Assembly: GCA_963725535.1 (NCBI GenBank) | Contig: CAVRYX010000001.1 | Coordinates: 75,540-139,539 of the forward strand | Direction of reading: 5' to 3' | Length of the DNA stretch: 64,000 nucleotides | Source of the DNA: an uncultured Solirubrobacterales bacterium | GTDB taxonomy: Bacteria > Actinomycetota > Thermoleophilia > Solirubrobacterales > Solirubrobacteraceae | Shown here: positions 2,810 to 48,169 of the stretch, one piece after another | Position numbering within the stretch: position 1 is the first letter of the stretch | Layout: each line of letters opens with the position of its first letter | Position numbers and translations under genes: made by a program | Notes under the pieces: generated by a model | What the model saw: the letters and a program-made list of their open reading frames with translations, nothing else | Databases searched by the model: none | What the model was told of the DNA's origin: nothing

Positions 2810-3688
2810 TCAGCCTCTGACGATCTGCGGCGTGGGCTGGCCGCGTTCGATGCGGGTCCGCTCGACGGCGGCGACTCCCTCCAACTCGGGCACGCAGGAG
2901 CCCCGCAGCTGCGAGTCGGGCGCCAACGGGCGCACGAGCCGTGCCGCGGCGAGCGCCACGCGGCAGCCCGCCGCGTGCGCGGGGGTGTAGCGCAGGCCGT
3001 ACAGCTCCCGCACCCGCGGTGGCAGCGAGCCGAGCATCACGAGATCGTGGACACGTTTGGCGAGCAGCCGCGAGGGCGCCGTGGGGATCTGGAAGGCCGA
3101 GGCGTGACCCATGTAGCGGGCCTCCTCGGTGAGGAACAGGTCGGGGCCCGCGAGCTGGCGCTCGTACCACGCGCGGAACTCCCGGTAGGTGGGTGGCAGG
3201 CTCTCGCGGGGAGCGCGGAAGAGCTCCGCGAAACGGACGTAGTCCTGCCACAGAGCTTCGCGCTCGCTGTCGGCCAAGGGGCCGACGAGGTGCTCGTAGA
3301 ACCACTGCGCCGAGTCGGCGATCACGGCGACCGTCCACAGCATCAACGCGGGATCGAGCGCCGCGTAGGGAGTGCCGGCCGGGTAGTGGGGGCCCGCGTC
3401 CTCGGGGAGCGAGCCGACCACACGCTCGTGCATGCGGTGGGTGGCCGCAAGCACACGGTCGGCCTCGGCGCGGGGGCCGAAGAAGACCGCCTCGAACATC
3501 GCGCCGGTGTGGGTGATGCGCCGGAAGGGGTTCAGCTTGTTGTGCGTGTGCAGGGAGGTCCCCATGTAGTTGAGGGGCTTCAGCGCGCCGATGCACAGCG
3601 CGCGCTGCCCGTACATGAGGCCCACCGCCTTCTCTTCGTGTACCCGTCGCAGCAGCGAGCGCCCACGCGGGAAGTAGCCGTCGTCCAC
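2810..3688 (-). CDS. DUF2236 / MpaB-type oxygenase family protein
   Basis: ORF 2810..3820. Conserved N-terminal pattern DDGYFPRGRSLLRRVHEE...GQRALCIGALKP typical of DUF2236. Start placed at in-frame GTG 3686-3688. Confidence 0.7.
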   Translation of the reverse strand: MDDGYFPRGRSLLRRVHEEKAVGLMYGQRALCIGALKPLNYMGTSLHTHNKLNPFRRITHTGAMFEAVFFGPRAEADRVLAATHRMHERVVGSLPEDAGPHYPAGTPYAALDPALMLWTVAVIADSAQWFYEHLVGPLADSEREALWQDYVRFAELFRAPRESLPPTYREFRAWYERQLAGPDLFLTEEARYMGHASAFQIPTAPSRLLAKRVHDLVMLGSLPPRVRELYGLRYTPAHAAGCRVALAAARLVRPLAPDSQLRGSCVPELEGVAAVERTRIERGQPTPQIVRG

Positions 3689-33242: not shown

Positions 33243-33999
33243 TGGTCATCTGCGCATACTGGTTGGCGGCCTCGACGCGATTGCGCACCCCCATCCGTGC
33301 GTACATGGCGCGGACGTGGAACTTGATCGTGTTTGGGCTGAGGTTGAGATCCCTGGCGATCTCATCGTTGCGCCGCCCTTGTGCGATCAGCGCGAGTATC
33401 TGCCGATGACGCGGGCTCAACCCTCCCTGCGTTCCTGGGTGCGCGGCGACCACCCGCTGCCAGCCGGCTGGCATGACGGTACGTCCGGTGGCCGTGTATC
33501 TGATCGCGGCCCGTATGTCCTCAGTCGAGTAGCTCTTGAGGAGCACCCCGCTCACCCGGTGGTCGATCGCGCAGCGCACCACCTCTTCGCAGAGCCCCCG
33601 GCAGAGCATCACGATTCTGGTCTTCACGTGCGATGAGCGCAGCGCGCCGACTGCACTCTGGCAATCGCCGGGCTCGCCTCCATCACAGTCGAGCAGGAGC
33701 ACCGCCGGTAGGCTCTTCACGTCGGCGGACTGGAAGTGCGCGGCGGACTCGAACGTCCCCAGCACATTGAGCCCGTCCTGCGCCGTCAGCAGGCTCGCGG
33801 TGGCTTCCCGCAGTAGACGCTGCCCGCCGATCAGCGCGAGCGTGATAGTCGGGTTGGGGCGGAGGAGGGGGGAGGAGGGCGACCAGCCGCCCCACTCGGC
33901 CGGTCCGCTCGCTACGCTGGCGGCGCCTGGCGGCGCGTAGACAAGGGCGCCTAAACCCTTGTCTGTGTCACGGCGCGACTCGTTGGTCTCCGACGGCAT
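33229..33999 (-). CDS. LuxR/NarL-family regulator with atypical receiver domain (tandem paralog)
   Basis: HTH LSPRHRQILALIAQGRRNDEIARDLNLSPNTIKFHVRAMYARMGV. The receiver reads LALIGGQR instead of DD. 14-nt overlap with the downstream paralog. Confidence 0.75.
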   Translation of the reverse strand: MPSETNESRRDTDKGLGALVYAPPGAASVASGPAEWGGWSPSSPLLRPNPTITLALIGGQRLLREATASLLTAQDGLNVLGTFESAAHFQSADVKSLPAVLLLDCDGGEPGDCQSAVGALRSSHVKTRIVMLCRGLCEEVVRCAIDHRVSGVLLKSYSTEDIRAAIRYTATGRTVMPAGWQRVVAAHPGTQGGLSPRHRQILALIAQGRRNDEIARDLNLSPNTIKFHVRAMYARMGVRNRVEAANQYAQMTSGGT

Positions 34000-34221
34000 T
34001 TATTCACCATTTCTGTGCGCTATGCGCTGGTCACTGCTTGGCATGCAGGGCTGCCACCTGCCCGGAGCGGCGCGCATGGGGGCTGGGGGACATGGGCCAT
34101 CGGCCTCTAGCGCAGGTCTGGACAGTTGTGTCAGTCGGAACCATACCAGGGATCGTCGGTTCGCGGTGTAAGGCGTGTTTACGCCAACCTGGTTGAGTAG
34201 TTCTGTCTGCTCGGAGAGCCT

Positions 34222-34986
34222 TTAGTGTCGCTCGGTGTCGAACATCGCCAGCGCGTGGGCGCCGGCGGGATGGGCGCGCAGCTCGCGCACGACCCCAGCG
34301 GCGTAGGCGGGCAGCTCGTCGGGCCGCGGCAGCGTGACCCCGTAGCCGGAGGGCATCAGCATGGGCGCGGCCAGCGCCGAGAACGTCAGGTCGGCGGCTG
34401 TGAACGCCTCGCCGCAGATGTAGGGCCGACCGTCGGCCAAGCGCTTGCCGACCGCCTCGAACGTGTCTCGCACCTCGGCCTCGGCTGCAACCGCCGTGGC
34501 AGGCGTGACCTCGAGGACACGCGCGAGGAGCGCCCGCATCGCGGGGTAGCCGACGCGCAGGCTCGCCCGCTCCCAGGCCGGGACGCCGGCGCAGCCGTAG
34601 GAGAGCGCGAGGTCGCGGCGCTCACGCAACTGCTGGTACATCCAGCACCGCGAACTGGGGCCCAGGCGTGCATTGAAGTCGGCCTCGCACAGCCGAACCT
34701 CCGCAGCGCGATCAGGGTCCACTGGGTACAGCTTGCGGCCCGGCGGGGTCTGCCTGTCGGCCCACGCGAGGATGTCTCCGGAATCGGCCAACACGCCGTC
34801 AGGGCCCACGAACACGGGTGCGGTGAGGCCACCGCCGGCGCGCAGCGTCGCGGCACGATGGAACGCCTGGACATGAGCGCGCTCCCGATACGCCACGCCG
34901 GCGCGCTCGAGCGCCCACCTCGCCTTCTCACAGTAGTGGCTGATCGGGATCGTGACGAGCGTGTTCGTGGTCTTCTGCGTGGGCAT
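34222..34986 (-). CDS. glutathione S-transferase family protein
   Basis: N-terminal thioredoxin-like LVTIPISHYCEKARWALERAGVAY...P.F plus a helical C-domain. Confidence 0.75.
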   Translation of the reverse strand: MPTQKTTNTLVTIPISHYCEKARWALERAGVAYRERAHVQAFHRAATLRAGGGLTAPVFVGPDGVLADSGDILAWADRQTPPGRKLYPVDPDRAAEVRLCEADFNARLGPSSRCWMYQQLRERRDLALSYGCAGVPAWERASLRVGYPAMRALLARVLEVTPATAVAAEAEVRDTFEAVGKRLADGRPYICGEAFTAADLTFSALAAPMLMPSGYGVTLPRPDELPAYAAGVVRELRAHPAGAHALAMFDTERH

Positions 34987-35111
34987 GGCTCCCGCTCCAG
35001 GTTACGTCATCGCAGCAGACACAATCGGGCAAAACCGAGGAGTTCACAGGAGCCCGTGCGGCGCCTCGCCGATAAGATCGTCGTCTCCCCGTCCGTTTCA
35101 GGCGGGGCCAC

Positions 35112-35474
35112 TCACCGGTCTTGAAGCAGCCCGAGAACGTTGCCGTCGGGGTCGGTGAAGGTAGCCACGGTGCGGCCTGGACCGACCTCGTGCGCGGGCT
35201 CCTTCACGGTGGCGCCCGCGGCTGTCACCTCGGCGAGCTTTGCCTCGATGTCCGGCACTTGCCAGTAGGCCACCGGTGAGCTCATGCCCTGCGGTCCGCC
35301 GCCCGGCACCAGCCCGATGTGCTGGCCCTCGGCGTCGAAGCCGACGTAGTAGGACGAGTCGTGCTGCGGGGGCATGCCGAGCAGGGCTGTGTACACCGCC
35401 TTGGACGTCGCCAGGTCGGAGACGGGATGCAGCACGGTCTTGATTCCCTGGGTGGAAGAGCCGGTCATGGTCAC
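35112..35474 (-). CDS. VOC/glyoxalase-family protein
   Basis: 120 aa; ends FTDPDGNVLGLLQ, typical of the VOC fold. Confidence 0.8.
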   Translation of the reverse strand: MTMTGSSTQGIKTVLHPVSDLATSKAVYTALLGMPPQHDSSYYVGFDAEGQHIGLVPGGGPQGMSSPVAYWQVPDIEAKLAEVTAAGATVKEPAHEVGPGRTVATFTDPDGNVLGLLQDR

Positions 35475-35574
35475 TCCTGAGGTCGTGGGTCACATCGACC
35501 CGATGGCTGGCTATGGATGCCCAGCAGCGTAGCCGGGCTCGGTGGATGTGGCCTCACGAGCAGAGCCCATGTCG

Positions 35575-35886
35575 TTATGTCCTGGTCTGGGCTGCGGCCA
35601 CGGCGGCCTGAACGGTCGGGTAGAAGTGGGTGATCGCGGGGCTGTCGATGACGCTGCGGAGGATGTCACGGACCTGCCCGATGTCGCGTGCGAGGAGCAA
35701 CTGCACGTCGCGCTGGGCCAGGTCTTCTGCGAGCGTGGCGAGCATCCGAGCGGCGGTTACGTTGACGAAGGGGATCGTCTCGGCGTCGAGGATGACGGCG
35801 GTGATGCCCTCGGCCTCGGCGGCGTGCACGACCCGGGTCCGCACGGCGTCGGCGTTGGCGAAGTACAGGCTGCTCTCGATCCGCAG
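35575..35886 (-). pseudogene. remnant: C-terminal STAS domain of a SulP-type anion transporter
   Basis: Translation LRIESSLYFANADAVRTRVVHAAEAEGITAVILDAETIPFVNVTAARMLATL... is a STAS domain. All transmembrane parts are missing and homology stops abruptly near 35886. Confidence 0.6.
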
Positions 35887-35888
35887 AC

Positions 35889-36698
35889 GCCCTCACCGCC
35901 GCCGGGGCGGAGGTGCAGCGCGGCACTCTCGACGACCTCGACGTTCTGCGAGATGCGGCTGACGCCTCAGATGGAGTGATCCACCTCGCGTTCAAGCACG
36001 AGCTCGCGTTCTCGGGTGACTTCCAGGCGGCCGCCGACGCTGATCGCCGCGCCGTCGAGACGTTCGGCGAGGCGCTCGCGGGCTCCGACCGACCGCTCCT
36101 GATCGCCTCGGGGATCCTCGGGCTGGCCCCGGGGCACGTGGTGACCGAGCAGGACGGTCATGGTTCCCACGCGGCCATCTCGGCCTTTGGCGGTGGTCCC
36201 CAGACTCGGTGGGAGACCGCGGAGCTCACGCTGTCCCTCGCCTCCCGCAGCGTCCGCTCGTCGATCATGCGACTCCCTCCGACGAATCACGGCGACGGAG
36301 ACAATGGCTTCATCGCGACCCTCGTCGGCATCGCCCGCGAGAAGGGGGTCTCCGGGTACATCGGCGACGGCACCAACCGCTGGCCCGCCGTGCACCGGCT
36401 CGACTCGGCGCACCTGTTCCGTCTCGGGCTGGAAGAGGCACCAGCAGGGACGACGCTGCACGCAGTCGCCGACGAGGGCGTGCCGGTCAGGGAGATCGCC
36501 GAGGTCATCGGGCGGCATCTGGACGTCCCGGTCGTCTCCGTGTCTACCGAGGACGCGGAGGAGCACTTCACTTGGCTGGGGGGGTTCCTTGGGCTCGATG
36601 CTCCAGCTTCCGGCGCGTGGTCGCGGAAGCTACTGGGGTGGGAGCCGACCCACCCCGGGCTCATCGCAGACCTCGACCAAGGGCATTATTTTCATTAG
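35889..36698 (+). pseudogene. N-terminally truncated NAD-dependent epimerase/SDR-family gene
   Basis: Homology starts at ALTAAGAEVQRGTLDDLDVLR... The Rossmann GxxGxxG segment (about 50-70 aa expected) is absent. The gene abuts the STAS remnant head-to-head. Confidence 0.55.
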
Positions 36699-36747
36699 GC
36701 GCGGGCGAGGCTCTGCATCTTTATGCGGTAGCGCTACACTAATATGC

Positions 36748-36993
36748 GTGCGCACGACCATTCAGCTCGATGACGAAGTGTTCCGTGCTTTCAAGCAGCG
36801 CGCCGCGGAGCGCGGAACGTCGCTGGCCCACGAGATTGAGGAGGCGTTGCGCTCGGAACTGGCCGCATGTGTCGAGGCGGCAAAGTCTGAGCTCTACCGA
36901 GTCCCGACCTTTCGTGGTAAGGCACCAGTGCCCGGCGTTGACCTGAACAGCAATGCGGCGCTGGCCGACATCCTCGAGAACGCCGGCGGGTGA
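36748..36993 (+). CDS. vapB: type II antitoxin, VapB-like
   Basis: GTG start; VRTTIQLDDEVFRAFKQRAAERGTSLAHEIEEAL; stop overlaps the vapC start (GTGA). Confidence 0.75.
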   Translation: MRTTIQLDDEVFRAFKQRAAERGTSLAHEIEEALRSELAACVEAAKSELYRVPTFRGKAPVPGVDLNSNAALADILENAGG

Positions 36994-37418
36994 TCCTCTT
37001 TGACGTCAACGTGCTGCTCAACGCCCATCGGGTCGAGCAGCCTGATCACGAGGTCGCACGCGATTTGCTCGAACGCACCGCTGGGGCGGTACACCCCTTC
37101 GCTCTCTCCGAGTTCATCCTCAGCTCCTTCGTGCGCATCGCCACGCACCGTCGCGCACTGAACCCGCCGACCCCTCTCGGTGATGCTCTCGACTTCTGTG
37201 ACGGTCTTCGCGCCCGGCCCAACGCACGTATCGTCGCTCCCGGTCGCCGCCACTGGACGCTGTTCGCTGACCTCTGCCGGCGAGTCGACGCCGTCGGCAA
37301 TCTGGCGGCCGACGCGTACCTAGCAGCGCTCGCGATCGAGTCTGGCTGCGAATGGATCAGTTTCGACCGCGACTTCGCGCGCTTCTCCGGGCTCAACTGG
37401 CGCTCGCCCGCAGACTGA
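36990..37418 (+). CDS. vapC: type II toxin, PIN-domain ribonuclease VapC
   Basis: MILFDVNVLLNAH...; conserved acidic residues (D5, E41 region, D98, D117-like FDRDF). Confidence 0.85.
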   Translation: MILFDVNVLLNAHRVEQPDHEVARDLLERTAGAVHPFALSEFILSSFVRIATHRRALNPPTPLGDALDFCDGLRARPNARIVAPGRRHWTLFADLCRRVDAVGNLAADAYLAALAIESGCEWISFDRDFARFSGLNWRSPAD

Positions 37419-41428: not shown

Positions 41429-42289
41429 ATGGCACGCGGCGATCACATCTACGTCGAGCGCTTCCAGGGCGTCTACTCCCACCACGGCTTGGATCGCGGC
41501 GACGGCACTGTGGTCCATCTGTGCGCTGACGAGGGTGCTGGGAAGCTCACCTCGGCGGTTCGCTGTTCCAAGATGGTGGACTTCGCTCAGGGAGCCGAAG
41601 TGAAAGTGATGCGCTACGGCGAGAGGCTCTCTGGCGAGGAGGCGGTCGCGCGCGCGGAATCGCTCCTCGGATCCTCGGGCTATGACCTCTTCAGCAACAA
41701 CTGCGAGCATTTTGCGTGCTGGTGCGTGACTGGGGAGCGGCTAAGCGAACAGGTGCGCGCGGCGGGGGCTGGGGCTGGGCTGCTCGGCACCGCGGCGCTG
41801 GGTCCGCGAGCCGGAGTGGGTCTGGTGGCCGGGGTGGGGGAGACGCCGGCGTTAAGCGCGCCGAACCTGATGTCGGGTCTGCGTAAGGTTGGTGGCGGCA
41901 ACGCAGTCGGCGGCCTCGCGGTGCTCGCTGGTGCCGGTGCGGTTCTCGGCGGCGGCGCTGTATGTCTAGCGTTCAGGGATAGGTCTTGCCTGCCAGACGA
42001 GGAGCGAGATGCGCGTCGCGCTGCACGCGCGGCCACTGTCGCCGGCGGCGCGATCGGTACGGTCGGAGTTGTCTACGCCGTCGGTCGCCTGGGCGTCCCA
42101 GGCTACGGAGCGGCAGGGATCAGCTCGGGGCTCAGTGCACTGGGCGCGCCGCTCGGCGGCGGGATGGTGGCTGGAATGACGGTCTCAGTGCTCGCGCCTG
42201 CATTGCTGGCCGCAGCGCTCGCGGTGTTGCTCTACGCGCTCGTCCGCTACATACGACCACGTCGCGCACCCGTTTGTCCAAACGGGTAG
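41429..42289 (+). CDS. LRAT/NlpC-P60-superfamily domain protein with Gly-rich membrane C-terminus
   Basis: GDHIYVERFQGVYSHHGL (His box) and NNCEHFACWC (catalytic Cys), then ~170 aa Gly/Ala-rich with hydrophobic helices. Confidence 0.8.
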   Translation: MARGDHIYVERFQGVYSHHGLDRGDGTVVHLCADEGAGKLTSAVRCSKMVDFAQGAEVKVMRYGERLSGEEAVARAESLLGSSGYDLFSNNCEHFACWCVTGERLSEQVRAAGAGAGLLGTAALGPRAGVGLVAGVGETPALSAPNLMSGLRKVGGGNAVGGLAVLAGAGAVLGGGAVCLAFRDRSCLPDEERDARRAARAATVAGGAIGTVGVVYAVGRLGVPGYGAAGISSGLSALGAPLGGGMVAGMTVSVLAPALLAAALAVLLYALVRYIRPRRAPVCPNG

Positions 42290-42677: not shown

Positions 42678-43532
42678 ATGGAGAAGGTAGCCCCGAGCGA
42701 GAGGTTTCGCCTAGAGCTGGATGAGGTGTTGGCCGGTGTTGACCGGGAGCAGGACCCGGTGGAGGTGGTCGGCCGGCTGGGAGCCCGTTTGATCTTGCAG
42801 CAGGCGCTGGAGGACGAGGTTACGGAGTTCCTCGGCCGTCGTCGCTATCAGCGTGCCGAGGAGACGGTCAGCCACCGCAACGGGCACGAACCGAAGACGA
42901 TCAAGACGACGAGCGGCTCGATGAACGTGGAGCGCCCGCGAGTCCGCGACGCGGGGAAGCTGGGGTTCGTGAGCAAGATTCTCGGTAAGGGCGTAGCTCG
43001 CACGCACGCGTTGGAGTCGCTGGTGATCAGCAGCTTCCTGCGTGGCCTGTTGACGAGGGATGTGGAGGCGACGTTGGAGGAGGTCTTCGAGGAGCCGATC
43101 GCGTCCAAGAGCACGGTCTCGCGGATTTGCGAGGACACCCGGGAGCGATACCGCCGCTGGTGCGAGTGGCGCCTTGAGGAGCACGACATCGTGTACTTGT
43201 TCCTCGACGCGATTTACCTGAAGCTGCGCCCCGAGGATCAGCCCGCGGAGGGCGTCCTTGTGTGCTGGGGCATCACCCTGGAGGGCCGCAAGGTCCTGCT
43301 CGGGCTGGCCCTGGGGAGCCGTGAGAGCTACGACAGCTGGCTCGCGTTCGCCCGGGACATGATCGCCCGCGGTCTGCGGCCACCGGCGCTCGTGATCGCC
43401 GATGGAGCACCCGGGATCTGGAAGGCCGTCCGGGAGATCTGGCCCGACGCTCTCGAGCAGCGCTGCACAGTCCACGCGTTGCGCAACGTGACGAGCAAGC
43501 TGCCCGAGCGCCATCACCAAGAGATCAAGTAG
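42678..43532 (+). pseudogene. IS256-family transposase, N-terminal 284 aa (interrupted)
   Basis: LEDEVTEFLGRRRYQR...HRNGH, YLFLDAIYLKLR, LVIADGAPGIWKAV: the mutator-type DDE transposase pattern. Confidence 0.85.
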
Positions 43533-43608
43533 TGCTTTGTTAGTTTTGTTGTAGGAGTTTGCTTGGGTTGCGGCGAATCCTTCTCGCGTTTGGTTGTCAA
43601 CGTGAGGA

Positions 43609-44240
43609 GTGATGATGGTCGCGGTGAGCGAAGCGAATTCGGGTGTGAGCGGAAGGGTTGATGTGCCGTCGGTCGTGTTGGGTCGGCTGGAGGCGTTCGG
43701 GGTTGAGGTGCTGGCGCCAGCGATGAACCGGTCGGTGCAGGTGCTCAACGGCGGGGTGTATCTGCGTGGGTTGATCGAGCAGGGGGCTCGCAAGTCGCTT
43801 GAGCCGATGGTTCATCGCCTCGGCGGGGAGGCTGACTATCAGAGCTTGCAGCAGTTTCTGGCTGACAGTCCGTGGGATCCTGGGCTGGTTGTGCGTGCGG
43901 TCGCTGAGCGGGTCGCGCCGCGGATTGGTGTTGAGGCGTGGGTGTTGGACGACACTGGGTTTCCGAAGGACGGGAAGGACTCGCCGGGGGTCAAGCATCA
44001 GTACTCGGGGACGTTGGGGAAGACGGGGAACTGTCAGATCGGTGTGTCGGTCCACGCGGTCGGAAGACGGGGGACGGTTCCTTTGGGGTGGGCGCTGTAT
44101 CTACCGGAGGACTGGTGCGAGAACGCGGAGCGGCGACGCAAGGCGAAGATCCCGGATGAGGTGATGTTCAAGACCAAGCCGGAGCTCGGGGTCGAACTGG
44201 TCCAGCGCGCCGCCAGTTGGGATGTGCCGAAGGCGCCCGG
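43609..44240 (+). pseudogene. IS701-family (DDE) transposase, N-terminal part (interrupted)
   Basis: SLQQFLADSPWDPGLV, WVLDDTGFPKDGKDSPGVKHQYSGTLGKTGNCQIGV: the IS701/ISRso17-type pattern. Confidence 0.8.
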
Positions 44241-44284
44241 GTAGGCGTCGCACTACTCATGTTGTTGATCCTTTGCCGGAGCGG

Positions 44285-44713
44285 GTGCGGCTGGTGGGGG
44301 CTCCGGGAGAGCTGCGGGATGTTGAGCTCGAGGTGCGTGGGTGGACATCGGAGACGGGCGAGACCGCCCTGATCTGTCGGCTGGTGGATGGCAGTACCGG
44401 GGCGATCCCGGCGCGGTGGACGGATCTGCCGTGGCGAGCCCAGCCTGAGCCTGCGGTTGGTGGGTTGGCCTCGCCGGCGGGGTGGCGGTTATTGCTGGCG
44501 CGGGCGGAGCGGGTGCGAGCGCGTCGTCCGGGTCGCGGTCGAGCCTCCAGCGAAAACGGAGGCGATGATGTCGGGACAGCTCGCGCTGGTGATGAGCGAG
44601 GAGGTGCTGGTCGCGGCGGCGGTATGGGAGACGCTGCCACCGGAGCATCGGGTGCAGTTGACGCGCAGGCTCGCGCGGCTGCTGGCACGGCTGATGGAGG
44701 CCGAGCGCGATGA
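44285..44713 (+). CDS. small ORF A of the recombinase element (extent uncertain)
   Basis: VRLVGAPGELRDVELEVRGWTSETGETALICRLVDGSTGAIPARWTDLPW looks protein-like, but the distal half is Gly/Arg-rich and probably not coding. Confidence 0.3.
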   Translation: MRLVGAPGELRDVELEVRGWTSETGETALICRLVDGSTGAIPARWTDLPWRAQPEPAVGGLASPAGWRLLLARAERVRARRPGRGRASSENGGDDVGTARAGDERGGAGRGGGMGDAATGASGAVDAQARAAAGTADGGRAR

Positions 44714-44717
44714 GTGA
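44565..44717 (+). CDS. small ORF B (50 aa, helical), translationally coupled to the recombinase
   Basis: GGAGG then ATGATG; MMSGQLALVMSEEVLVAAAVWETLPPEHRVQLTRRLARLLARLMEAERDE. Its 3' end overlaps the recombinase start: recombinase ATG at 44710, ORF B stop at 44715-44717. Confidence 0.45.
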   Translation: MMSGQLALVMSEEVLVAAAVWETLPPEHRVQLTRRLARLLARLMEAERDE

Positions 44718-46902
44718 CCGTCAGAAGATCACCGAGACGCATCTGCGTCGGCGCGCGGTCGTCTATGTGCGCCAGTCGACGGTCACACAGTTGGAGCGCA
44801 ACCATGAGTCGCGGGCGCGTCAGTACGCGTTGCGTGAGCGCGCAGTCGAGCTCGGGTGGCTGGCTGGGTCGGTCACGGTCGTTGATGAGGATCTCGGTCG
44901 TTCGGGTGCCTCGACAGAGGGGCGGGTCGGCTTTAAGGATCTCGTCGCGGAGGTCGGACTCGGCCAGGTCGGGCTCGTGTTAGCGCTCGAGGTTTCGCGT
45001 TTCGCTCGCCGCTCAGCTGACTGGCATCAGCTGCTCGATCTGTGCGCGCTGACCGGCACGCTGATCGCTGACCAGGACGGGATCTACTCGCCGAGTGACT
45101 TCAACGACCGTTTGCTGCTGGGGTTGAAGGGCACGATGAGCGAGGCGGAGCTTCACTTGATCCGCGCACGGCTGAACGGCGGGCTGCGCAACAAGGCAGA
45201 GCGCGGCGAGCTTGAGCAGAACCTTCCGGTTGGCCTTGACCGCGAGGAGGACGGCGGGATCGTACTCGCCGCGGATGAGCAGGTACGTCACGCGATTGCC
45301 CGGGTGTTTGAGCTGTGGCGGCGCGTCGGCTCGGCACGGCAGGTCGTTGTTTGCTTGATCGAGGAGGCGCAGCGGCTGCCGCGGCGCACGGTCGGCTCGC
45401 GGAGGGTGCGCTGGGCGCCAGCGAATTATCCCGCAGTGCATGATTTTCTCACCAATCCGGCGTATGCGGGGGCGTTTGTGTTCGGCCGTACCCACCAGCA
45501 GAAGTCACTGGACGAGCACGGCCAGGTGCGCTGCCGTACCGTGGAGCTGCCGGTCGAGCAGTGGTCCGTCTGCCTGCCCGAGCACCATCCAGGCTATGTC
45601 AATTGGGATGAGTACCTGGCCACCCGTGCGCGGCTGCGAGCGAACGTGAGACCACGCGGGCAGGGCGGTGGCGCCGCGAGGGAGGGCGGCGGGCTGCTGC
45701 AGGGCATCCTGCGCTGCGGTCGCTGCGGTCGGCGGATGCAGGTCACCTACTCAGGTAACGATGGCCGCACGCCTCGTTATGCGTGTGTGCGCGCCAACAA
45801 CTTCCACGGCGGGCAACGCTGCCAGTCCCTCGGCGGACTACGGCTCGAGAAGGCGATCGCCGCCGCGTTCCTGGAGGCGATCACACCCGCCGGCGTGTGC
45901 GCGTGCGCCGAGGCGATCGGTGAGATCGAGCGCCAACACGAGGAGCGCCTCGCCGGCCAGCGACTCGCGCTCGAGCGCGCGCAGTTCGAGGCCGGCCGCG
46001 CGCGCCGCAAGTTCGACGCGTGCGAGCCGGAGAACCGCCTCGTCGGCCGCACGCTGGAGCGGACGCTGGAGGAAGCCCTCGGCGAGTCCGAGCGTGAGCA
46101 GCGCAAGCTCGCCGAACTCGAACACCGCCGGCCAGAGCCGCTCACGAGCACCGAGCGTCAAGCACTCACGCGCCTGGGCCGCGAACTCCCACGACTATGG
46201 ACGGCCGAGACGACAACCCCGCGTGATCGCAAGGAACTGCTGCGGACCCTCATCAGCGAGATCATCGTCACCGTGAGAGAGGACCCCCGGCGCGCTGAGA
46301 TCGAGATCGTCTGGGAGGGCGGCGCCCATACCGAGCTGCTGGTCCCGCTCATTCGCCGCGGCCCCGAGACGACGCGCACCAGCGAGGACACGATCGAGCT
46401 GATCCGCCAGCTCGCCGCGCACCACCCCGACCACCAGATCGCCGCGATCCTGAACAAGCAGGGACGCCTGACCGGCACCGGCCTGCCGTTCACCGAGCCA
46501 CGCGTCAAGCGCGCTCGAAAACAGCACCAGATCCCCGCGGCGCCACCACCAGACCCCGACAGCGGCATCTTCTCGATCGCCCAAGCAGCCGACGAGCTCG
46601 GCGTCGCGCACACCACGATCTACCGGTGGCTGCAGGCCGGGCTGCTACCCGGCGAGCAGACGACCCCGCACGCCCCCTGGAGGATCCGGCTCACCAACGA
46701 GATCCGCGCCCGGTTCGTGCCCGACGTGCCCGACGACTATGTGCCGCTCGCCGAGGCCGCCAAACGCCTCGGGGTCGCCCGCCAGACCGTTTTGCACAAG
46801 GTCCAACGCGGCGAGCTTCACGCCATCCAGGTCACAACCGGACGACGAAAGGGCCTGAGAATCCACGTCAACGGCGCCACGACTGGACTATTTGACCAAT
46901 GA
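44710..46902 (+). CDS. large serine recombinase (resolvase domain + recombinase domain + zinc ribbon + coiled coil + two C-terminal HTH)
   Basis: AVVYVRQSTVTQ (catalytic Ser region), LEVSRFARRSADWHQLLDLC, CGRCGRRMQV...YACV, and HTH motifs IAQAADELGVAHTTIYRWLQAG and LAEAAKRLGVARQTVLHKVQRG. Confidence 0.9.
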   Translation: MSDRQKITETHLRRRAVVYVRQSTVTQLERNHESRARQYALRERAVELGWLAGSVTVVDEDLGRSGASTEGRVGFKDLVAEVGLGQVGLVLALEVSRFARRSADWHQLLDLCALTGTLIADQDGIYSPSDFNDRLLLGLKGTMSEAELHLIRARLNGGLRNKAERGELEQNLPVGLDREEDGGIVLAADEQVRHAIARVFELWRRVGSARQVVVCLIEEAQRLPRRTVGSRRVRWAPANYPAVHDFLTNPAYAGAFVFGRTHQQKSLDEHGQVRCRTVELPVEQWSVCLPEHHPGYVNWDEYLATRARLRANVRPRGQGGGAAREGGGLLQGILRCGRCGRRMQVTYSGNDGRTPRYACVRANNFHGGQRCQSLGGLRLEKAIAAAFLEAITPAGVCACAEAIGEIERQHEERLAGQRLALERAQFEAGRARRKFDACEPENRLVGRTLERTLEEALGESEREQRKLAELEHRRPEPLTSTERQALTRLGRELPRLWTAETTTPRDRKELLRTLISEIIVTVREDPRRAEIEIVWEGGAHTELLVPLIRRGPETTRTSEDTIELIRQLAAHHPDHQIAAILNKQGRLTGTGLPFTEPRVKRARKQHQIPAAPPPDPDSGIFSIAQAADELGVAHTTIYRWLQAGLLPGEQTTPHAPWRIRLTNEIRARFVPDVPDDYVPLAEAAKRLGVARQTVLHKVQRGELHAIQVTTGRRKGLRIHVNGATTGLFDQ

Positions 46903-46931
46903 CGATCACGAGGAGGGCAGTATGAACCAGG

Positions 46932-47595
46932 ACCGCTGGTGCTCGGCGATCACGCGTACGGTGAGAACACCAGGCTGCGAGACCGTCTCGATCAGGCCGG
47001 GTGCGAGTATGTGCTGTCGGTTGGACCGACCACGAAGGTGTTCGAGCACGGCACCGCCTTTGCGGTGCCAACCCCAAAGGGCAACGACGGTCGCGTGCCG
47101 TTCAGGCCGCGGCCGGACCGCAAGCCTGAGCCAATCGGCGATCTGATCGGCGGGCTCGGAGCAGACACCGCCCAGACGGTCGCCTTCCGCGACGGACCCG
47201 ACGGCGAACCGGTCTCCTCCAGGTTCATCTTCGCGCGCGTTTACGCCGCTCACGGCTGGCGCGACGATCAGCACCGCAGCGGATGGCGCGAGGGCGCCGA
47301 GGTTTCCCCGCGCGAGGAGTGGCTGATCGCTGAATGGCCCGAGGGCGAGAACGGACCGACCGACTACTGGATCTCAAACCTCCCCGCCGACACCCCGCTC
47401 GAGCGGCTCGCGCGGCTCGCCAGGATGCGCTGGAAGATCGAGCTCGACTACAAACAACTCAAGGGCGAGCTCGGCCTCGACCACTACGAGGGCCGCTCAT
47501 GGCTCGGGTGGTATCACCACACCGCGCTGGTGACCGCCGCTCACGGATTCCTGACCCTGGAGCGGCAGTACCCAAATCACCCACGGCCGGCCTGA
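46932..47595 (+). pseudogene. IS701-family transposase, C-terminal part
   Basis: VLGDHAYGENTRLRDRLDQAGCEYVLSV...RMRWKIELDYKQLKGELGLDHYEGRSWLGWYHHTAL. Confidence 0.8.
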
Positions 47596-47719
47596 CCCTC
47601 CCTCAGGCAATCCTCCTGCTCCAGCCGCTGTTCAAGTGCTGGACCGGTCGCTGCCAAACCTGCTCCCAGCCCGTCGAACTCGACCGGCTCACCCTCAACA
47701 ACCCACCCCGACAAGATGA

Positions 47720-48169
47720 GTGAACCTAACAAAGCACTACAAGGCGCGCTGGTGGAAGACCTTCGATGAGGCCCGCTCCCCGGGCGAGGCCCGCCGGGAA
47801 CTGCAGGGCATCATCGAGGACTACAAGGCCGCGTACCCCTCCGCGATGGCCGTCATCGAGAACGACCTGCCCGCGCTGATCACCCATCTGCGGTTCCCCT
47901 CCCAGCACCGCAAGCGGATCAGGACCACGAACCTGCTGGAGAGAACGTTCGTGGAGGTCCGCCGACGTACCAAGGTGATCGGACGGTTCCCCGGAGAGAC
48001 CTCCGCCCTGTCACTCATCTGGGCCGTCCTGGAGCTCACAAGCCGCGGCTGGCGCGGCGTGAAGATGAACCCCAAGACCCTCGCCGAGATAGAGCGCCTA
48101 CGCCGCGAGCTGCGCACCACACCCGCACAACCCCCGGCCGAGAGCACCCAGGAGGTGATCGCCGCATAA
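47720..48169 (+). pseudogene. IS256-family transposase, C-terminal part
   Basis: Homologous part starts after CAAG at 47744 (ARWWKTF...). LRFPSQHRKRIRTTNLLERTFVEVRRRTKVIGRFP is the conserved IS256 C-terminal motif. Confidence 0.85.

Follow-up and report, generated by a model that had tools for sequence, protein, structure and literature searches.

The question raised by this locus is whether a large serine recombinase (LSR) can be the only enzyme of an element no larger than an insertion sequence (IS) and, if so, what DNA such an element enters. The locus lies in a 64,000-nucleotide stretch (the window, whose positions are used below) of the genome of an uncultured Solirubrobacterales bacterium (GenBank assembly GCA_963725535.1, contig CAVRYX010000001.1, positions 75,540 to 139,539 of the forward strand). 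Here an LSR gene and two small open reading frames (ORFs), orfA and orfB, interrupt the transposase gene of an IS701-like element. We consider it very probable that positions 44238-46935 constitute an autonomous IS-like element with the LSR as its only enzyme, that it belongs to a family which prefers DNA encoding the Walker A motif, and that the window copy occupies a pseudo-site.

Limits and copies of the element

An earlier, sequence-only reading of the window had placed the element at 44241-46931, with a GG crossover, in the DDE region of the IS701 transposase. The last point holds, the Pfam DDE_5 profile being cleanly split at position 177/182 across the insert. The limits and the crossover can be corrected from the five copies of the IS701-like element in this genome, one of them occupied and four intact and empty. 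The four intact copies give the empty site GAAGGCG-CC-GGTGCTC, and therefore the inserted DNA is 44238-46937, i.e. 2,700 bp comprising the 2,698-bp element and one extra crossover dinucleotide; the occupied site reads GAAGGCG-CC-[CGGGTAGG...GGACCG]-CT-GGTGCTC. By this comparison the earlier limits are 3-6 bp off, and the junctions are CC (attL) and CT (attR) instead of GG. While the junctions differ from those first proposed, the minimal-element reading is upheld, as the empty sites close over 2.7 kb. The element and its ends are as follows:

44236-44237, no strand: attL crossover dinucleotide CC, identical to that of the empty IS701 site
44238-46935, plus strand: LSR element proper, 2,698 bp (CGGGTAGGCG...GAACCAGGACCG), with limits from the empty sites of three targets
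44238-44272, plus strand: left end, the P' arm of attP, very conserved as DNA (CGrrTAGgcGTCGCACTACTCATGTTGT; consensus of 36 distinct attP reconstructions)
46903-46935, plus strand: right end, the P arm of attP (...GGGCAGTATGAACCAGGACCG), conserved across the same reconstructions
46936-46937, no strand: attR crossover dinucleotide CT, that of the donor and unlike attL

The right end is the 33 bp that follow the recombinase stop codon, close to the 30 bp noticed earlier. In two genomes (loci L090 and L100) the first ca. 25 bp of the left end are replaced by the same foreign sequence (..CCTAAAACCCCATCTGGAGCTAACCGGATACGCATCACTCATG), which has the appearance of a variant end that recurs, or else of a second insertion.

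Locating further copies and comparing their att sites, as the sequence-only reading had recommended, gave six copies of the LSR element in the genome which are 99.96-100% identical and differ in their flanks, a degree of repetition far beyond chance. They occupy four distinct targets: the IS701-like element, a 1.49-kb IS, the junction region of an IS21-like element, and the Walker A region of an istB gene. For three of the four an empty site is available in the same genome. The 1.49-kb IS is present in at least 12 empty copies with the attB core CG, and three are occupied, all at one identical position; in two of these (on C9 and at C7:809296) the junctions are CG/CG. The IS21-like element, the target of the copy at C7:1676536, has an empty counterpart at C7:1720924/1720923 with the core AC. 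The copy at C7:2364457 lies in the istB Walker A site, the sole Walker A site among the four, and carries CT at both junctions. No target duplication accompanies insertion, a single copy of a 2-bp dinucleotide being found on each side when empty and occupied sites are compared; this is the signature of serine-recombinase strand exchange. The element is recently mobile, and the description of it as an autonomous, LSR-driven IS is supported by the six copies, the exactly shared 2.7-kb unit and the recurrence of that unit size in relatives.

The 1.49-kb IS (e.g. G000 C9:154706-158988 and C7:1058297-1056810) has a further peculiarity: its C9 and C4 copies also hold an insert of ca. 90 bp belonging to a repeat of ca. 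100 bp, which occurs at about a dozen other places and resembles a miniature inverted-repeat transposable element.

Insertion sites of relatives

A scan with the orfA alignment revealed 76 loci, mostly in Solirubrobacterales genome bins, and in 71 of these an LSR gene follows, its start about 440 bp beyond that of orfA. The repeat unit within these genomes is 2.70-2.75 kb, the short-read assemblies include stand-alone element contigs of 2.7-3.0 kb, and some relatives have frameshifted LSRs. Once the element ends had been fixed, the survey yielded 44 unique insertion sites and the 36 attP reconstructions mentioned above.

The left flanks of the relatives are the reverse complement of P-loop codons. 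At 35 of the 44 unique sites the same dinucleotide stands at both junctions, and at 34 (the istB copy in this genome and 33 sites of relatives) joining the left flank, the dinucleotide and the right flank rebuilds an in-frame GxxxxGK[ST], a motif with a chance frequency of 3.5e-5 of positions in this genome. Relative to its target gene the element always has the antisense orientation, its LSR and the rebuilt motif being on opposite strands, and the register is fixed, with the crossover at bases 1-2 of the motif's third codon in every instance (G-x-[x]-G-x-G-K-T/S). The target halves match the Pfam families IstB_IS21 (21 sites by motif type), AAA_16 (9), the type IV secretion system coupling protein T4SS-DNA_transf/TraG (2) and AAA (2); there is one mimic which is not a P-loop, LGVTKTH in an rve_3 transposase. 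On the strand of the element the preferred attB is GTCTTGCCGGnnCCG-NN-CGGnCC. Since the same attB sequence recurs across P-loop families, the address read from these alignments is the Walker A-coding DNA itself and extends beyond IstB. The predicted istB attB of another genome is present there twice in intact form with 0 mismatches; that of locus L050 was not found intact in its own genome.

The suggestion that the element targets other mobile elements was right in spirit, the preferred address being Walker A-coding DNA, most often that of IS21 istB genes, and wrong in naming IS701 as the target, as discussed below.

The window copy as a probable pseudo-site

For scoring of genomic positions a narrow site matrix was used, since a wide one was overfitted by IstB homology. 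On this matrix the IS701 site ranks in the top 1.2% of genome positions; of its two halves, the left ranks in the top 0.4% and the right is at background. The interrupted gene is of the DDE_5 type and has no P-loop, and no other DDE_5 insertion occurs among the 44 family sites. The insertion is best read, on site scores of this kind, as a pseudo-site event at a weak look-alike, rather than as homing to IS701.

The main alternative is that the IS701 site is a true secondary target, and that the element recognises DNA encoding the catalytic motifs of several mobile-element genes. The crossover lies four codons before LGDHAYG, the catalytic-Asp motif of the IS701 transposase, and two proteobacterial relatives, on Mesorhizobium huakuii plasmid p_3 (L137) and on a Pseudomonas mandelii JR-1 plasmid (L138), between them split an IS1380-family transposase at DIDDT/FD and a group II intron reverse transcriptase at DLEKF/FDRV; the good score of the left half-site points the same way. 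We nevertheless judge this unlikely, though it fares best among the alternatives considered here: the background score of the right half-site and the lack of DDE_5 genes among the sites of other family members speak against it, as do the four identical IS701 sites that stand empty in the same genome. For the same reason the site-specific targeting of IS701 raised by the earlier reading is not borne out, one in five IS701 copies being occupied and the five other copies of the element lying elsewhere.

Crossover footprints

Where the two junctions are unequal and the empty site is known, one junction holds the target dinucleotide and the other the donor's CT:

Window copy: attB core CC, attL/attR CC/CT
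Copy at C7:1676536: attB core AC, attL/attR CT/AC
C4 copy, in the 1.49-kb IS: attB core CG, attL/attR CT/CG
L042, in another genome: attB core GG, attL/attR GG/CT

This pattern suggests integration in spite of non-complementary overhangs. Unequal junctions of this sort would be expected if a circle bearing CT had undergone a 2-nucleotide staggered exchange with a site that does not match it, and replication had then split the heteroduplex. Copies with unequal cores probably excise poorly.

A simpler account places the crossover at the invariant CG which starts the left end, so that no mismatched exchange is needed. At L042 the attP (..TCG-CT-CG-AGTAG) and the attB (..CCC-GG-CG-GACC) do share CG, and with this register the junctions come out as observed with no mismatch. 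It fails at the C4 copy and at the copy at C7:1676536, for which the empty sites are known, and it offers no account of the equal junction dinucleotides at 35 of 44 sites or of their variation among 100%-identical copies. We regard it as improbable and rejected it on the grounds of those two empty sites and the equality of the junction dinucleotides.

The recombinase

The sequence-only reading had described a 730-amino acid recombinase with two additional C-terminal helix-turn-helix (HTH) motifs, and this is confirmed:

44710-46902, plus strand: large serine recombinase, 730 amino acids (Pfam, NCBIfam and PHROGs matches; alignment to PDB 3guv)

The protein comprises Resolvase (residues 16-167; PF00239, E = 4.5e-20), Recombinase (194-311; PF07508) and Zn_ribbon_recom (329-386; PF13408) domains, the latter two both over cut-off, followed by two HTH_17 motifs of the excisionase/MerR type at 621-660 and 681-713. 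R21-x-S23 aligns with the active-site region of PDB 3guv and the catalytic serine is intact. The enzyme thus has the LSR features of a catalytic serine domain, a recombinase domain with zinc ribbon, and a 2-bp crossover without target duplication; it seems to depart from the class in the strict complementarity of the central dinucleotides, judging from the unequal attL and attR at known attB sites. Its PHROGs label is integrase, and its best NCBIfam match is XisF, far under the cut-off. The last HTH (682-714) resembles that of IS607 TnpA (NF033518; 23.8 bits against a cut-off of 110), but this HTH is all that matches the model and is C-terminal in a 730-amino acid protein, so we do not place the LSR in the IS607 family.

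The small ORFs

Both small ORFs suspected earlier, the one containing IPARWTDLPW and the 50-residue helical one coupled to the recombinase, are present and constitute the only cargo. Each is a conserved gene, as judged from homologues, paralogues and, for orfB, the coding pattern of its GC content:

44273-44530, plus strand: orfA conserved core, starting at TTG 44273 or GTG 44285; DUF5372-like SH3-type beta-barrel and C-terminal helix
44567-44717, plus strand: orfB, 50 amino acids, helical; GGAGG Shine-Dalgarno sequence before the ATG, and a stop which overlaps the LSR ATG by 8 nucleotides (ATGAGTGA)

At least 140 homologues of orfA, of ca. 90-100 amino acids, are found in the databases, and their alignment has a mean column identity of 64%. 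Against DUF5372 (PF17342) orfA scores 12.8 bits with Pfam (cut-off 25; E = 0.13); comparison of the two alignments with hhalign gave E = 2.6e-5 and 75% probability, and the nearest ESM Atlas clusters are DUF5372 (0.92). Of 22 actinobacterial loci with related LSRs, 18 have a genuine DUF5372 gene upstream of the recombinase, and pNGR234a shows the same arrangement. By these comparisons orfA is a putative divergent relative of DUF5372 which scores under the Pfam gathering threshold. The AlphaFold (AF2) model (pLDDT 76) predicts a small SH3/Tudor/KOW-like barrel plus helix. Since fold searches with it returned only generic SH3/Tudor/KOW barrels (Foldseek E ≥ 0.015; VIA Z ≤ 6.3), function cannot be drawn from the fold.

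In the 2.7-kb form of the element the frame of orfA remains open to 44713, i.e. up to the LSR start. The resulting 146-amino acid version was rejected: the GC pattern of the tail is anti-coding, and the tail shares DNA with orfB, the frame of which has a coding pattern (GC by codon position 0.79/0.45/0.90, fitting the orfB frame only). Per-codon-position entropy was uninformative in this GC-rich region. In 3.0-kb variants of the family orfA ends at ca. 96 amino acids, and one more small, winged-helix-like ORF stands between orfA and orfB.

In 49 distinct sequences orfB is an open frame that ends at the same stop; it has no match in Pfam, NCBIfam or PHROGs. Both genes are kept in paralogous elements of the same genome whose LSRs are only ca. 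50% identical, and orfB also occurs in the proteobacterial relatives. They are conserved partners translationally coupled to the LSR, most likely directionality or accessory factors.

Two further LSR element types, with LSRs 52% and 42% identical, occur in the genome as a convergent pair in which each has its own DUF5372-like upstream ORF (G000 C9:242983-248800; also C5:278149-281745, C7:242822-245441 and C6:1-2300). The pair is repeated at least three times, with several copies at contig ends.

Proposed mechanism and its weighing

We propose that the LSR cuts the element out as a circle in which the junction right end-NN-left end would form attP, and that this attP recombines with a chromosomal attB, preferentially in Walker A-coding DNA. 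Since strand exchange is conservative, an excision event would leave the target gene exactly as it was before insertion. In the case of the window copy a CT-bearing circle would have met a CC site, and the mismatched heteroduplex would have been separated by replication; the likely donor would be the istB Walker A copy at C7:2364457, with its CT/CT junctions. Poor excision of copies with unequal attL and attR cores may explain the build-up of off-consensus copies in the genome.

Several points weigh against this scheme. None of excision, circle or recombination has been observed for this genome. In favour of a circle there is one metagenome contig (L114, Ga0213876_10025179; junction at 3029-3071), which runs from the flank through the element and on, by way of right end-GG-left end, for 99 bp into the left end; this head-to-tail junction might come from a circle, from a tandem copy or from the path taken by the assembly. 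The LSR of L114 is broken in frame at residue 137/138, as is that of L103. Ligation of mismatched overhangs is not known from the characterised LSRs (phiC31, Bxb1), and the mismatch reading therefore calls for an unusual enzyme or for repair by the host. Of the four distinct sites in the genome, three lie outside Walker A DNA and rank in the top 1-7% of positions only, and about 50 good Walker A sites are still empty, many with a Walker A typical of housekeeping ATPases; the specificity of this lineage may therefore be looser than that of the family. Lastly, the role given to orfA and orfB is a proposal.

A different explanation of the copy number is that the element spreads passively with its host ISs, through their transposition or duplication, the recombinase being no longer active. 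Three copies do share one position within the 1.49-kb IS, two of them with identical CG/CG junctions, and the frameshifted LSRs of some relatives would fit as well. Passive spread accounts poorly for four unrelated contexts. The attL of the C4 copy, CT as against CG in the same IS, differs from the others, so there were at least two events at that site. In addition the ORFs are intact in all six copies which, together with the complete LSR domains and catalytic serine, argues against the inactive or degraded recombinase that had earlier been envisaged. We hold passive spread to be quite improbable. That the 2.7-kb unit is merely part of a larger prophage, integrative and conjugative element (ICE) or transposon with the recombinase as its integrase, a caveat of the earlier reading to which the PHROGs label and the fact that LSRs usually serve phages and ICEs lend some colour, is barely credible and already refuted by empty sites closing perfectly over 2.7 kb, by six copies which share exactly 2,698 bp holding only orfA, orfB and the LSR and nothing further, and by the same unit size in other genomes and the stand-alone contigs of 2.7-3.0 kb.

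Surroundings of the window copy

The autonomous LSR element is here the innermost part of a three-level nest, within an IS701-like element of 1,512 bp (43529-47740 when the insert is counted) which in turn lies within an IS256-like element:

42678-43532, plus strand: N-terminal part of the IS256-like (Mutator family) transposase, the outermost layer (Pfam Transposase_mut profile 30-273, E = 5e-55)
43529-44235, plus strand: IS701-like left part, DDE_5 N-terminal part (ORF 43609-44244; Pfam DDE_5 profile 3-177; limits from intact copies)
46938-47740, plus strand: IS701-like right part, DDE_5 C-terminal part (ORF 46939-47595; Pfam DDE_5 profile 182-268; limits from intact copies)
47720-48169, plus strand: C-terminal part of the IS256-like transposase (Pfam Transposase_mut profile 283-376)

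Several copies of the IS701-like element (window 43529-47740; G000 C7:2645295-2646806, C9:30632-32143 and C7:221012-223213) lie at one and the same position within the IS256-like element. Two of them have the opposite orientation, with an overlap of ca. 15-19 bp per junction. This suggests that IS701 has a site preference of its own inside IS256, or that the composite was duplicated. Just upstream of the nest, 41429-42289 (plus strand) encodes a 286-amino acid protein whose N-terminal domain is LRAT/NlpC-P60-like and whose tail is membrane-like and rich in glycine and alanine.

The wider family and comparison with known systems

Full-length relatives of the LSR (48-50% identity, HTH tail included) occur in 476 plasmid records, mainly from rhizobia. 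The two inspected, L137 and L138, keep the order orfA-like gene, orfB, LSR with the 8-nucleotide overlap; in both, attL and attR carry AA and the target includes GTCG-AA. A module of pNGR234a (33989-37258: DUF5372, HTH, small ORF, recombinase), the genes of which we take to be y4bD-y4bA by their old names, has the same gene order as the element family. Its LSR is 40% identical to that of the window over 652 amino acids, its DUF5372 protein also has a WTD motif, and its small ORF overlaps the LSR start as orfB does, with no detectable similarity between orfB and this NGR234 ORF. The 3.0-kb variants of the present family are like the module, too, in having a winged-helix-like ORF between orfA and orfB. 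Annotation of the module goes no further than hypothetical, transposase or recombinase genes and, as far as we could find, no mobility or target has been described for it. Literature searches on DUF5372, LSR with istB, serine recombinase with Walker A, y4bA and a new serine IS family found no description of the present elements or of their Walker A targets.

The clostridial transposons Tn4451/Tn4453 (TnpX) and Tn5397 (TndX) are moved by LSRs as well: a circle is the intermediate, the crossover spans 2 bp, the target is not duplicated and several targets are used. They are 6-21 kb in size with resistance or conjugation cargo, and their targets resemble the element ends around GA. Compared by description, the present element is like them in its LSR, the 2-bp crossover, the absence of duplication and the several targets. 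It differs in its 2.7-kb size, lack of cargo, LSR with two C-terminal HTH motifs, orfA/orfB partners and a target that encodes a protein motif. IS607 is moved by TnpA, a small serine recombinase of ca. 200 amino acids with the HTH N-terminal to the catalytic domain, little target choice and often a TnpB partner. The likeness here lies in IS size, a serine recombinase and no target duplication; the enzyme of our element, by contrast, is a 730-amino acid LSR with recombinase and zinc-ribbon domains.

Phage and developmental LSR systems (phiC31, Bxb1, SPbeta SprA in spsM, the skin element SpoIVCA in sigK, and XisF of the fdxN element) are single-copy, tens of kb long and use one attB per genome, and small partner proteins often set the direction of recombination in them. 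The element resembles these in enzyme class, conservative integration inside a gene and, as predicted for it, exact restoration on excision, but is multi-copy, 2.7 kb in size and has a degenerate, motif-type attB in many genes. With inteins, homing endonucleases and group II introns it has in common an address held constant by selection on a protein motif, and thus targets in every host; the mechanism is different, there being no splicing, and the interrupted gene is inactive until excision.

Significance

Taken together, we put it at somewhat better than an even chance that these are a widespread, undescribed class of cargo-free LSR elements, reversible parasites of parasites addressed by DNA that a protein motif keeps constant, above all the Walker A codons in the ATPases of other mobile elements, whose recombinase completes exchange with non-complementary dinucleotides and whose core is re-tuned at each new site. 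The family represents a second serine-recombinase route to IS-like behaviour, beside IS607. In orfA and orfB the family offers candidates for a directionality or accessory factor of a new type. The mismatch tolerance, if true, would be unusual for LSRs, and would matter for genome-integration tools, in which a core mismatch is taken as a safeguard. Since the address is a protein motif-coding sequence present in every genome, targets are never lacking, and the element seems to survive in dispensable genes only, for the most part genes of other mobile elements. Through conservative excision it would act as a reversible switch of IS21 and related elements.

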